Part shown: piece by piece, positions 22,957-26,777 of the stretch | Layout: each line of letters starts with the position of its first letter | Position numbering within the stretch: the first letter of the stretch is position 1 | Source of the DNA: Gammaproteobacteria bacterium | GTDB lineage: Bacteria; Pseudomonadota; Gammaproteobacteria; Natronospirales; REEB76 | NCBI GenBank assembly: GCA_027317045.1 | Contig: DAHVFI010000303.1 | Coordinates: forward strand, 1 to 28,148 | Direction: 5' to 3' | Length of the DNA stretch: 28,148 bases | Notes under the pieces: generated by a model | Databases searched by the model: none | Told to the model about the DNA's origin: nothing | What the model saw: only the letters and a program-made list of their open reading frames with translations | Made by a program: the position numbers and the translations under genes

Positions 22957-23913
22957 ATGCGCGAACTCTTCCCTCCCTTGGAACCCTTTGCCACCCGCCG
23001 CCTACCCGCGCAGGCGCCCCATGAGATTTATGTGGAGGAATGCGGCAATCCCGACGGCCTGCCCGTGGTGTTCGTTCACGGCGGTCCGGGCGGTGGCTGT
23101 ACCACCGACAACCGCAGGTTTTTCGATCCGGCGCGTTATCGCATCGTGCTCTTCGATCAACGCGGTTGCGGCCGTTCACGGCCACACGCGGAACTCACGC
23201 ACAACACCACCCAGGCGCTGGTGGAGGATATGGAGCGCATCCGGGAAACCCTCGGCATTGAGCGTTGGCTGGTTTTCGGCGGTTCCTGGGGTTCGACCTT
23301 GGCCCTGGTGTACGCCGAAACTCACCCACAGCGGGTCCTGGCGCTGATTCTGCGCGGCATTTTCCTGGTCACGGCGGCGGAACTCAGCTGGTTTTACCAG
23401 GACGGCATCCAGCATCTGTTTCCGGACTATTTTGAGGAGTTCGTGGCGCCGATCCCGGTAGCCGAGCGCAGCGACCTGATACACGCCTATTATCGGCGTC
23501 TCACCAGCGATGATCCCGCCACGCGCCAACGCGCGGCGGAAGTCTGGTCGTTGTTCGAGGCGCGCTGCTCAACGTTGTTGCCCAGCGAATCCGTCGTAGA
23601 TCATTTTTCCGAGCCGGATGTGGCCATGGCCATCGCCCGCATCGAATGTCATTACTTCGTGCATGATTGTTTCCTGACCCCCGGGCAGATCATCCGCGAT
23701 GCGCCGCGTATCCGGAATATCCCCGGCGTGATCGTGCAAGGGCGCTACGATGTGGTATGTCCGGCGTCCGCCGCTTGGCAGCTGCACAAGGCATGGCCGG
23801 AAGCGCAGTTTCGGTTAATTCCCGATGCCGGCCACGCCTCCAGCGAACCGGGCGTCTGCTCGGCCCTGGTGGAAGCGACCGATGAGTTTGCCGGCCGTTT
23901 CAAAACCCCATGA
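22957..23913 (+). CDS. pip: Proline iminopeptidase
   Basis: [28 protein letters not shown] (nucleophile Ser), [17 protein letters not shown] and DAGH. Confidence 0.96.
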
Positions 23914-24365
23914 TCGGACTGTTGCAGCGCGTCAGCCGCGCTTCGGTGGAGGTGGAAGGCAGGCCAGTGGCCGCCATCGGTCGGGGGCTACTGGTGTTCA
24001 TTGCTGTCGAGCGTGGCGACCGTGAAGCACAGGCCGAACGTCTGCTGCAACGCCTGCTAGCCTACCGCGTGTTCCCGGATACGGCTGGCCGCATGTACCG
24101 GGATGTGCGCGAGATTGACGGTGGCCTGCTGCTGGTGCCGCAATTCACGCTCGCGGCGGATACCCGCAGCGGCAACCGCCCGAGTTTCACGCCAGCGGCG
24201 CCGCCGGAACAGGGCAAATATCTGTTCACCTGTCTATACGAACAGGCTGTGCGGGCCCACGCCGCCACCCAGTGCGGCCTATTCGCGGCTGATATGCAGG
24301 TATCGTCGGTGAATGACGGGCCCGTCACCTTCTGGTTAGAAGTCCCGCCCGATTCGGAGAGCTGA
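23910..24365 (+). CDS. dtd: D-aminoacyl-tRNA deacylase
   Basis: [36 protein letters not shown] and FAADMQV..VNDGPVT. Confidence 0.95.
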
Positions 24366-24632
24366 GAGGACATGGATTGTTCCTGATCCCCGTCTGGATT
24401 AGGATTGAGCCGCCGGTAGTTTATAAACCATGAATAAAATACGCTGGCTTGCTTGAATATGGACAGCGCACTTGAATCCAGCTTCGTCATCATTGACCGG
24501 TCCGGATCCAATCCCATGTTTTCCATAACCACCAGATACCATATGTGCCGACGCTCCACAGCCCCTGCTTAATAGTTTGGCGGCGCGCACGGTCGGACGG
24601 GAAATAACGCAGACCAAAACCAGGCGACAACC

Positions 24633-25367
24633 ATGTTGCTGATACCTGCGATCGATATAAAGGATGGGAAATGCACACCTGCGACGGCTGTCCCTGGTGA
24701 TGGCAAGTCCGTGCCGACGGATAATCCGGTGATGGTTGCCCAACGCTGGGCGGCAGCGGGTGCACGCCGCCTGCAGGTGGCGGACATGGACAGTGCACAA
24801 CCCGGCAAACTGGCGAATGCCGCCGTAATCCGCGGCATTGTGGGCGCCTGTCCCGGCGTGCCGGTGCAGGTCAGCGGCGGAATGCGCAGCGATGCAAACG
24901 TGGAAAGTTATTTTGACGCAGGCGCGGACTACCTGATCTTGGGGACCAAGGCCGCGAGCACGCCGCATTACATCAACAACCTGTGCCTCGAATATCCCGG
25001 GCACATCCTGGTGGAGTTGGAGACCAAGGATGGCAAGGTGAACACCGAGGGTTGGTCGAAATTGGCCAACCACGAAGCCCTGGAGGTGGCGGAGCATTTC
25101 CAGCGCGAGGGTGTGGCGGGAATTCTTTACAGCGACAAACACCATGGCGGGATGCGGAATTTTAATCTCACGGCGGCTTTGTCACTGGCCCAGTCCCTGA
25201 CCATCCCGATATTTCTGGCCAACGGTCTGAACTCTCTTGAGGATATCCGCCAGCTGTGCGAAGCAGGCGGCGGTAGCCTGGCGGGCGCCGTGTTGTCCGT
25301 CCAACCCCTGGATTTTGCCAAAGCACAAAAACTTGCCGACGTGCTTCCCGGCGAGCCCTCGGAATAG
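24633..25367 (+). CDS. hisA: HisA (ProFAR isomerase) homologue, full length but active site degenerate
   Basis: LLIPAIDIKDGKC, AGARRLQVADMD, VPVQVSGGMRS, AGADYLILGTKA, ETKDGKV.TEGW, ILYSD and IPIFLA align with HisA along the whole length; the VRLxQG, KDG, SGG and GRA motifs are substituted. Confidence 0.85.
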   Translation: MLLIPAIDIKDGKCTPATAVPGDGKSVPTDNPVMVAQRWAAAGARRLQVADMDSAQPGKLANAAVIRGIVGACPGVPVQVSGGMRSDANVESYFDAGADYLILGTKAASTPHYINNLCLEYPGHILVELETKDGKVNTEGWSKLANHEALEVAEHFQREGVAGILYSDKHHGGMRNFNLTAALSLAQSLTIPIFLANGLNSLEDIRQLCEAGGGSLAGAVLSVQPLDFAKAQKLADVLPGEPSE

Positions 25368-25483
25368 GAAATGAAAGGCGCGGCAATAGGCGTAAAATAA
25401 GTTTCCACCGGCCTTGATGAATCAGGTTTCTTTTGAGCGAGCTCTGGTCCCCACCCATTACCCCGGAGCCGCGGGAGCAATTC

Positions 25484-25693
25484 ATGGAACTCAGTGTTGG
25501 CAAGATCCTGTTGATTCTTATCATCGTGGTGCTGGTGTTCGGCACCGCCAAACTGCCCAAGCTCGGCGAAGATCTCGGCAAGGCTGTGCGCAGCTTCAAG
25601 AAGGGCATGCACGATAGCGACAACGAACCTGCGGCCGGAGCGAAAGCCGCAGACGAAAAGTCCAAGCCCGGTTCCGACAACACTTCCAACTGA
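25484..25693 (+). CDS. tatA: Twin-arginine translocase subunit TatA
   Basis: TM helix plus [25 protein letters not shown]; SD GGGAG before ATG 25484. Confidence 0.95.
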
Positions 25694-25699
25694 CGTTCC

Positions 25700-26005
25700 A
25701 TGTTCGAAGGCAGCTTTTGGGAGCTGGCACTGATCTTCGTGCTGGCGTTGGTGGTGTTTGGTCCGGAACGTTTGCCGGGACTGGCGCGCACCGTTGGCCT
25801 GTGGGTGGGCCGGGCGCGGGCCGTGGTAAGAAATCTCACGGAACAGATCGAACGCGAACTGGCTGCCGAGGAAATGCGTAAGACGGCGGACAGCGTACGC
25901 CGGGCTATGAATGAGCCGATCAACCTCGTTGGCACCAAGACTGCCGGTACGGATACGGCGGACCGGGCGCAGGAAACAACCAAGCATGACCCCCCCAACG
26001 GATGA
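25700..26005 (+). CDS. tatB: Twin-arginine translocase subunit TatB
   Basis: MFEGSFWELALIFVLALVVFGPERLPGLARTVG. Confidence 0.95.
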   Translation: MFEGSFWELALIFVLALVVFGPERLPGLARTVGLWVGRARAVVRNLTEQIERELAAEEMRKTADSVRRAMNEPINLVGTKTAGTDTADRAQETTKHDPPNG

Positions 26006-26777
26006 TCCCGGCGGCGAAACACTGATCAGCAAATCCCTCATCGGGCACCTGCTGGAGTTGCGCCGTCGTCTGCTGCTGTGGGTGGGGACACTGTTGGCGC
26101 TGTTCTTGTGCCTGTTCCCGTTCCAGAACCGGGTGTTTGATTTCATCGCCTTGCCCATGATTCGGCGGTTGCCGTCGGGTTCCAGCATGATTGCCACCAG
26201 CGTCACCTCGCCTTTCATGACGCCCATGAAGCTTACGCTCATGCTGGCGCTGTTCCTGAGTGTGCCGGTGCTGCTCTGGCATCTGTGGCGGTTTGTGTCG
26301 CCGGCACTCTACAAGAGCGAACGCCGTATGTTTTTCCCGCTGCTGGTGTCCAGCGTGGTCCTGTTTTATTGCGGTGTGGCCTTCGCCTACTTTGTGCTGT
26401 TTCCGGTGGCGTTCGCGTTCCTTACCTCGGTGGTGCCGGCCGGGGTCAAGGTGATGACCGACATCAATGCCTACTTGGATTTCGTGCTCACGATATTCTT
26501 TGCCTTCGGTTTGGCCTTCGAAGTGCCGGTGGCCATCGTACTGGCAGTATGGGTGGGGTTCACGACACCCGGCAAGCTCAAGAAACTGCGCGCCTATGCA
26601 TTGGTAGCTTCCTTCATTGTCGGCATGATTCTGTCGCCGCCAGATGTGGTTTCCATGACCTTGTTGTCCGTGCCAATTTATCTGCTGTATGAAATCGGCA
26701 TGCTCATGGCGCGTATCCTGGTGCCGGGCTCGAAGCAGGTGGATGCGCAGCATGAACAAGGGCAAGCTGAACCATGA
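25986..26777 (+). CDS. tatC: Twin-arginine translocase subunit TatC
   Basis: LIGHLLELRRRL, TSPFMTPMK, FVSPALYKSE, YLDFV, FGLAFEVP and PPDVVSM.LL.VP.YLLYEIG. Start overlaps the tatB end. Confidence 0.96.
   Translation: MTPPTDDPGGETLISKSLIGHLLELRRRLLLWVGTLLALFLCLFPFQNRVFDFIALPMIRRLPSGSSMIATSVTSPFMTPMKLTLMLALFLSVPVLLWHLWRFVSPALYKSERRMFFPLLVSSVVLFYCGVAFAYFVLFPVAFAFLTSVVPAGVKVMTDINAYLDFVLTIFFAFGLAFEVPVAIVLAVWVGFTTPGKLKKLRAYALVASFIVGMILSPPDVVSMTLLSVPIYLLYEIGMLMARILVPGSKQVDAQHEQGQAEP

Follow-up and report, generated by a model that had tools for sequence, protein, structure and literature searches.

A solitary hisA-like gene upstream of tatABC

The stretch of DNA analysed here (the window) comprises 28,148 nt of contig DAHVFI010000303.1 (assembly GCA_027317045.1), from a gammaproteobacterial metagenome-assembled genome (MAG) of the order Natronospirales. 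The host MAG is 2.06 Mb and 84% complete, and related MAGs come from soil and mine drainage. The window contains a solitary hisA-like gene located between dtd and tatABC, with a pip-like hydrolase gene upstream of dtd and an eamA transporter gene as a further neighbour (Table 1). A first-pass annotation made from the sequence alone had proposed that this gene encodes a HisA pseudoenzyme; the open reading frame (ORF), its length of 244 residues and all of the motifs quoted for it are present in the translation as listed. The protein is derived from HisA, the isomerase of 5′-phosphoribosylformimino-5-aminoimidazole-4-carboxamide ribonucleotide (ProFAR), and probably does a different job.

The product matches Pfam PF00977 (His_biosynth) with 151.6 bits. 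Its best NCBIfam models are the HisA equivalogs, and it falls well under the cut-offs of both (NF010112, 156.4 bits, cut-off 243; TIGR00007, 133.7 bits, cut-off 228.95), whereas the operon-encoded HisA of a genome of the same order (G027) clears them with 248.7 and 255.2 bits respectively. An AlphaFold2 model computed with 70 homologues has eight strands and eight helices (predicted local distance difference score 83.8; predicted template-modelling (TM) score 0.84), with poor definition confined to loops 1 and 6, and the top PDB folds in a Foldseek search are PriA and HisA (E 1e-15, TM 0.8). By Pfam match, predicted model and fold search the protein has the (βα)8 His_biosynth barrel of the HisA family. 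A long antisense ORF (24399–25145, leftwards) was considered as an alternative coding frame and rejected; the length of its open frame in the orthologues ranges between 102 and 246 codons, and the HisA frame is therefore the selected one.

In HisA the catalytic aspartate pair consists of the β1 base D7 and the loop-6 acid D176 (Salmonella enterica numbering), and W145 makes a stacking contact with ProFAR, whose distal phosphate is bound by R83 and S103 (PMC9088769). Alignment of 20 copies from the window's own family with 45 canonical gamma-type HisA proteins bears out the reported loss of the catalytic and proximal-phosphate motifs: loop-1 VRLxQG, the loop-6 Asp and the C-terminal SGG and GRA are all gone, and alignment to PriA structures places His or Gly at the loop-6 catalytic position. 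The window copy itself retains D8, W141 and the N-terminal phosphate site at β3/β4 (SGGMR, LGTK), while the C-terminal site at β7/β8 is replaced (ANGL, SVQ). The earlier statements that the N-terminal Asp is retained and that the damage falls only on the reacting half-site are thus accurate for the window copy, but neither holds among its orthologues. The base position is Glu in nine copies, Asp in four, Gln in four and otherwise Thr, Ser or Ala; Leu replaces R85 in several orthologues and T105 is variable, so the damage is wider than one half-site. Because these last two are distal-phosphate residues, the suggestion that a ligand resembling 5-aminoimidazole-4-carboxamide ribonucleotide (AICAR, or ZMP) is bound through a surviving half-site appears weakened.

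Forty-odd columns that are invariant in canonical HisA are free in the window's family, including D8, D11, V15-R16-L17-Q19-G20, T105, G128, T167–G172, A195-S196-G197 and Y222-E-G224, and loop 6 (T167-D-I-R-D171-G172) is hypervariable with insertions and deletions. The substitutions of the window copy are not fixed in orthologues, a point that the first-pass annotation had proposed to check; the lost active-site positions vary freely, and the His-His pair at 170–171, considered as a new catalytic dyad, was rejected as it occurs only in the host genome and its 92%-identical relative. Positions still conserved in the family are P5, W39, AGARRL42–47, D51, Q79, H112, C118, E120, P122, H124, an acidic residue at 130, GWSK140–143, G160, P192 and the α8 helix, with R45, R46, D51, H112, E120, H124, K143, R158 and D236 as conserved polar surface residues. 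Only three columns (A72, R158 and A162) gain constraint, none of them at the catalytic face. Judged from these alignments, the protein keeps a subset of the ancestral constraints and has no rebuilt active site, a pattern more in keeping with binding or a structural role than with a newly acquired enzymatic activity.

Residues H112, C118, E120 and H124, in the α4–β5 segment, do not vary among the relic copies, nor among the 45 canonical HisA proteins nearest to them. To our knowledge, judging from Pseudomonas HisA, this set is not general to HisA, and it could be a metal site or a subfamily interface.

Table 1. Genes, protein motifs and putative expression signals of the hisA-like locus (nucleotide positions in the window; residue numbers for motifs).
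Feature	Position	Strand	Basis and remarks
pip-like alpha/beta hydrolase (S33 aminopeptidase type)	22957..23913	+	PF00561 and PF12146; synteny; conserved upstream neighbour
dtd (D-aminoacyl-tRNA deacylase)	23910..24365	+	PF02580, 159 bits; synteny; upstream neighbour in all lone-hisA genomes
P1, putative promoter-like element	24377..24405	+	TTGTTC, 17-nt spacer, TAGGAT; in the spacer from dtd to hisA-like
Putative 5′ leader of a hisA-like-tatABC transcript	24412..24632	+	~220 nt; contig starts in two libraries
hisA-like	24633..25367	+	244 aa; HisA-derived (βα)8 barrel; ORF and translation
Motifs in hisA-like, residues 6–53			AIDIKDG 6–12; TPATAVPG 15–22; RLQV 46–49; VADMD 49–53
Motifs in hisA-like, residues 81–141			SGGMR 81–85; LGTK 103–106; LETKDG 129–134; EGW 139–141
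Motifs in hisA-like, residues 167–224			SDKHHGG 167–173; ANGL 196–199; SVQ 222–224
P2, −10-like box upstream of tatA	25390..25398	+	G-GTAAAAT; invariant in nine genomes
tatA	25484..25693	+	PF02416, 51.7 bits; likely start ATG 25484 (MELS...), from orthologous spacer alignment
tatB	25700..26005	+	PF02416, 38 bits
tatC	25911..26777	+	PF00902, 212 bits; start uncertain, Pfam match from residue 46

The histidine pathway and the origin of the locus

Because a single incomplete MAG proves little, 40 relatives were also searched, comprising 24 genomes of the same family (several of them 96–100% complete and one in four contigs) and others, together with 14 control genomes that were positive in every his-gene search (14/14). 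The gene is indeed solitary: it is the sole PF00977 gene in the whole host assembly, and a candidate second hisA or hisF, the other, weak PF00977 match (contig C249, 24.6 bits), encodes a tRNA dihydrouridine synthase (Dus). Imidazoleglycerol-phosphate dehydratase (IGPD; HisB), HisD, HisG, HisF and HisI were not found in searches of the host MAG, and HisG, HisD, IGPD, true HisF and HisI were each found in 0/24 family genomes, all 24 of which contain exactly one hisA-like orthologue. When the order was sampled a second time, with only genomes of ≥85% completeness, IGPD was present in 6/41 genomes overall and in none of the 24 from the window's family. The pathway context of HisA, in which HisG and HisI/E make ProFAR and HisF/H use its isomer phosphoribulosylformimino-AICAR (PRFAR), was therefore not found in the host MAG or in any of the 24 family genomes. 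Of the two possibilities raised in the first-pass annotation, a histidine auxotroph or a second hisA elsewhere, it is auxotrophy that fits.

Nor is there a significant hisB, hisH, hisF, hisI or hisE remnant anywhere in the window in tblastn searches with HisB, HisH, HisF, HisI and HisE queries from a relative, in agreement with the earlier statement that none flanks the gene; a possible HisH remnant in the dtd–hisA spacer was dismissed as a chance match (E = 4.1). A PriA-like replacement of TrpF is ruled out by canonical enzymes: TrpF (PF00697) is encoded in the host MAG (contig C309, 159.7 bits) together with TrpC, the two are present in 22/24 and 20/24 family genomes respectively, and the protein reaches 74.5 bits with TIGR01919 (hisA-trpF), for which the cut-off is 306. 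The hisA-like protein therefore does not act as a TrpF substitute.

Three genomes of the order (G032:C19, G034:C47 and G038:C42; loci L031 and L037) have a complete E. coli-like his operon besides their tat-linked hisA relic, and these additional operons look like replacement of the pathway by horizontal transfer.

The gene order pip-dtd-hisA-like-tatABC is present in 24/24 family genomes, and the slot is the one in which hisBHAFIE precedes tatABC elsewhere, as the first-pass annotation had supposed. At least 60 of the 76 nearest canonical hisA loci from other Gammaproteobacteria read (hisB-hisH-)hisA-hisF-hisI-hisE-tatA-tatB-tatC, and in two of them dtd (in one case with pip) lies directly upstream of hisB. 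Families within the order form a graded series. One family (f4, which includes G027) has hisB-H-A-F-I-E-tatABC-eamA with a HisA above the equivalog cut-offs; three (f5, f6 and f9) have dtd-hisH-hisA-hisF-tatABC; four (f1, the window's own, with f2, f3 and f7) have pip-dtd-hisA-tatABC; and one (f8, a single genome) has pip-dtd-tatABC with nothing between. In this last genome, G031 (L121:1000-1275), the hisA-like gene is wholly deleted, such that tatA follows dtd after ~75 nt, and a GGCGTACAAT box remains upstream of tatA.

In a maximum-likelihood tree all tat-linked copies fall within the gamma-type HisA clade (Shimodaira-Hasegawa-like approximate likelihood ratio test support 98), separate from the HisA of the additional his operons, which is of E. 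coli type, and the copies of the window's family are on long branches. The synteny series and the tree together establish the hisA-like gene as the orthologue of the operon hisA, left after two flanking deletions.

The loci with dtd-hisH-hisA-hisF-tatABC (L030:3442-5579 in G032, L032 and L033 in G036 and G040, and L034:5397-7549 in G028) present a different remnant. Searches of G028, G029, G036 and G040 found no HisG, HisI or IGPD, and HisD is represented only by a contig-end fragment in G028. The HisA of family f9 is degenerate, with Ala at the base position and without the loop-6 Asp; in the adjoining HisF the phosphate sites and the motifs of the catalytic Asp residues are intact, and HisH is above its cut-off in G028 and G032. 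From these sequences, an imidazole-glycerol-phosphate synthase has apparently been kept without its pathway.

Selection and expression

All 32 copies of the hisA-like gene that were extracted have intact frames (233–251 codons). The ratio of nonsynonymous to synonymous substitution rates (dN/dS, or ω; Nei-Gojobori method) is 0.10–0.28 in 12 close pairs and is similar for residues 1–165 and for residues 166 to the end; the neighbouring genes dtd and tatB have values of 0.10–0.21 and 0.03–0.31 respectively. Canonical HisA pairs at similar dS have values of ~0.01–0.15 (median ~0.08), such that ω of the hisA-like gene is ~2.5 times that of canonical HisA, with a nonsynonymous rate two to three times faster. 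Constraint on the gene is thus relaxed about 2.5-fold, yet is far from lost. The proposal that the frame is maintained by selection is upheld, the neutral decay with frameshifts that would have spoken against it is not seen, and a young pseudogene is ruled out by the intact frames together with dN/dS values well under 1.

The tat-linked copies of a sister family (f3) retain nearly all HisA motifs but have Asn at the catalytic base. Their dN is 0.12–0.175, below that of dtd and tatC, and their ω is ~0.05–0.09, with dS saturated. Two of the three f3 genomes have a complete, separate E. coli-type his operon and the third lacks the his pathway. D7N and D11N, Asp-to-Asn variants at this position in HisA, are those whose crystal structures contain substrate or product (PMC9088769; PDB titles). 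Since constraint on the f3 copies is strong with or without the pathway, it suggests a function other than ProFAR isomerisation, and this function may predate the decay seen in the window's own family.

Evidence from RNA consists of contigs of a ~96%-identical relative assembled from three soil metatranscriptome libraries of three studies. Contigs in two libraries start at positions corresponding to 24420 and 24428 and span the hisA-like gene, tatA and tatB into tatC; one of these ends in sequencing adapter. The dtd contigs in the same two libraries are separate and shallower, and one stops at 24413. The third library has a single contig from dtd to tatB. The contig starts lie just downstream of P1, both hexamers of which fall in blocks without variation among nine members of the genus, although P1 falls under the threshold of a consensus promoter scan. 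In the same scan P2 is found as ATGAAA-16-TAAAAT, and it is similar to the GGCGTACAAT box that persists in G031 after deletion of the hisA-like gene. These observations are suggestive of a promoter belonging to the hisA-like gene, which is read together with tatABC, and of a further promoter belonging to tatABC. A requirement of tatABC for the hisA-like gene in cis is unlikely, as the P2-like box lies between them and is retained in G031.

Repeated TGGATTG / CTGGATTAGGATTG blocks are located at 24373–24409, immediately after the dtd stop codon, and are invariant in nine genomes; they could be −35 and −10 boxes or equally a regulator-binding site. A 12-mer was also considered: its copy near tatA coincides with the invariant GTAAAAT, and its upstream copy lacks conservation across the genus. 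The ~220-nt putative leader has no match in Rfam (E up to 5) and its folding is not unusual (z-score +0.5), and a riboswitch or other known RNA, including one for the triphosphate of the ZMP series (ZTP), was rejected on these grounds. A short ORF in the leader (24431–24457, eight codons, MNKIRWLA) is likewise an open frame in the closest relative, but it lacks genus-wide conservation and is probably meaningless. The longest tatA ORF opens at TTG 25433, and alignment of relatives (MELS..., preceded by GGGAG) favours ATG 25484 as the start.

A retained barrel and its possible roles

The protein fits the sequence-level definition of a pseudoenzyme, having lost the residues of the parent chemistry while retaining an intact frame under purifying selection across orthologues, and it fails tests for membership of the HisA, PriA and HisF2/WbuZ groups. 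The reading that we favour, with a probability of roughly 0.55, is of a pseudoenzyme that derives from HisA and has been kept for a non-catalytic function independent of histidine. An ancestor with pip-dtd-hisB-hisH-hisA-hisF-hisI-hisE-tatABC would have passed hisA on vertically, the histidine pathway would have been lost in the order or, in a few genomes, exchanged for a foreign E. coli-type operon, and two deletions (hisB-hisH upstream and hisF-hisI-hisE downstream) would have left hisA alone. The triosephosphate isomerase (TIM) barrel is predicted still to fold, with ProFAR isomerase activity presumably gone and with the catalytic base, the acid loop, loop 1 (which closes over the substrate) and the phosphate site of the reacting ribose free to vary. 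Purifying selection would retain the protein, expressed from its own conserved putative promoter and transcribed with tatABC, for binding a small phosphorylated ligand or a protein partner through ancestral surfaces that are still constrained. Three candidate surfaces can be proposed: the part of the old active site formed by β2, β3, β5 and loop 5 (H48, which is Gln in the window copy, D51, Q79, GG82–83, acidic 130 and GWSK140–143), one on the bottom face as predicted from secondary-structure topology (AGARRL42–47, H112, C118, E120, H124 and R158), and helix α8.

Several points weigh against this reading. The clean deletion in G031 means that the function is dispensable in at least one lineage. 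Loss of isomerase activity is deduced from residues, and the conserved positions are an ancestral subset in which many are Gly, Pro, Ala or aromatic, so that fold maintenance alone could account for them. The variation at R85 and T105 argues against a simple retained nucleotide half-site, and assembled contigs alone do not establish a transcript start, its strand or a single transcript.

The same data have been weighed against three other explanations. A neofunctionalised enzyme acting on a different, probably smaller mono-phosphorylated or unphosphorylated substrate, with E/D130 of β5, D51, K143 and W141, would accommodate the acidic residue retained at 130 in 18/18 family copies, the near invariance of D51, Q79 and GWSK140–143 and the purifying selection along the whole gene, and HisA barrels shift substrate easily, as in PriA, subHisA and subTrpF (PMC5404923) and in the evolution of TrpF from HisA (PMC7591586). 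We consider it unlikely, however, as the catalytic face has acquired no polar residue that is both new and invariant (the gained columns lie away from it), loops that close on a substrate are seldom hypervariable with insertions and deletions, as loops 1 and 6 are, and the His-His pair is confined to the host genome and its closest relative. Continued ProFAR isomerase activity, or a PriA-like HisA/TrpF activity, with pathway genes missed in incomplete MAGs, is very improbable. The incompleteness of the host MAG and the D8, D51, SGGMR and W141 of the window copy are in its favour, but the five his families were found in every control and not even in near-complete family genomes, the protein has lost the SGG/GRA phosphate site together with loop 1 and the loop-6 Asp, and with TrpF and TrpC so widely encoded, and a TIGR01919 score so far under its cut-off, no substitute is needed.

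A functionless passenger, decaying slowly and kept open by its position in the tat unit and by the cost of misfolding, is improbable, though less so than a working isomerase. It would explain why the stepwise series of losses in the order ends in full deletion, why the gene evolves faster than its neighbours (55–57% identity, against 80–86% for pip and tatC) and than canonical HisA, and why the retained residues are largely structural. However, ω is far from neutral in every close pair, and the polar surface residues listed above are conserved. Clean flanking deletions are evidently feasible, yet hisA is retained in seven of the eight order families sampled besides the window's own. The sister-family copies are under more constraint than dtd and tatC, and the invariant −10-like box before tatA, kept in G031, makes it unlikely that tatABC needs the hisA-like gene in cis, which argues against retention merely as a cis part of tat expression.

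An extension of the favoured pseudoenzyme reading is more tentative: gamma-type HisA beside tatABC could have an ancestral second function independent of both histidine synthesis and isomerase chemistry, the candidate roles being to act alongside the co-transcribed twin-arginine translocation (Tat) system or to sense a phosphoribosyl or ZMP-like metabolite. If true, this would explain why hisA alone has outlasted the two flanking deletions in at least seven families, why copies with a dead base persist with very low dN beside a complete his operon, and why the hisA-like gene has its own conserved promoter-like element.

HisA is a textbook model of enzyme evolution, through the HisA/HisF duplication, the conversion of HisA to TrpF, and PriA. 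The hisA-like protein shares with canonical gamma- and beta-type HisA (EC 5.3.1.16) its fold and length, ~45–48% identity to the nearest canonical proteins, the slot upstream of tatABC and a place within the same clade, as well as AGARRL, QVxGG, the PH..N.LC.E.PGH segment, GWSK and the α8 motif. Unlike them, it lacks the loop-6 Asp, VRLxQG and the C-terminal SGG and GRA (its orthologues lack the N-terminal catalytic Asp also), falls under the equivalog cut-offs, and occurs in a genome in which no other his genes were found.

The HisF2/WbuZ/AglZ proteins and an archaeal HisA/HisF-related family are likewise PF00977 members used outside histidine biosynthesis. The hisA-like protein is far under the cut-offs of the corresponding models (TIGR03572, 53 against 300 bits; NF038364, 48 against 310; TIGR00734, 21 against 180) and, in contrast to HisF2/WbuZ/AglZ, has neither a HisH-like partner nor a glycan gene context in its family; tree and synteny make it an orthologue of HisA and no paralogue of HisF. 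HisZ, a catalytically inactive paralogue of histidyl-tRNA synthetase that regulates short-form HisG within the histidine pathway, is similar in being a histidine-related pseudoenzyme kept for a non-catalytic binding or regulatory role, but its partner is known and it acts inside the pathway, whereas the hisA-like protein occurs without one.

The closest documented case is PriA in the Actinomycetaceae (PMC5404923). There, PriA, subHisA2 and subTrpF are HisA-family barrels kept while his and trp genes were lost during genome reduction, with relaxed purifying selection (dN/dS 0.09–0.15) and active-site mutations (PMC5404923). The likeness lies in a barrel that outlasts gene loss under relaxed selection with changes at the active site, and the best structural matches of the hisA-like protein are to PriA. 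The Actinomycetaceae enzymes, however, serve a surviving pathway and keep the catalytic Asp pair, while for the hisA-like protein both the HisA and TrpF roles are closed, because searches found no his pathway and TrpF is encoded separately, and the catalytic residues are gone.

No description of a HisA pseudoenzyme was found in a literature search on HisA pseudoenzymes and on orphan or HisA-like homologues. The Natronospirales genes provide a natural and well-replicated case (more than 30 genomes with a graded decay series inside one order) of a biosynthetic barrel that has outlived its pathway and shed its catalytic machinery while still under selection. A ligand or partner, if found, would reveal what new use can be made of a TIM-barrel isomerase, and might expose moonlighting of canonical HisA in proteobacteria with hisA beside tatABC. 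In metabolic reconstructions, annotation of these genes as isomerases would wrongly credit their hosts with a step of histidine biosynthesis. Many of the degenerate orthologues are labelled as ProFAR isomerase in public annotations (e.g. P0005, P0012, P0018 and others), and the newer NCBI pipeline labels degenerate orthologues 'HisA/HisF-related TIM barrel protein'.

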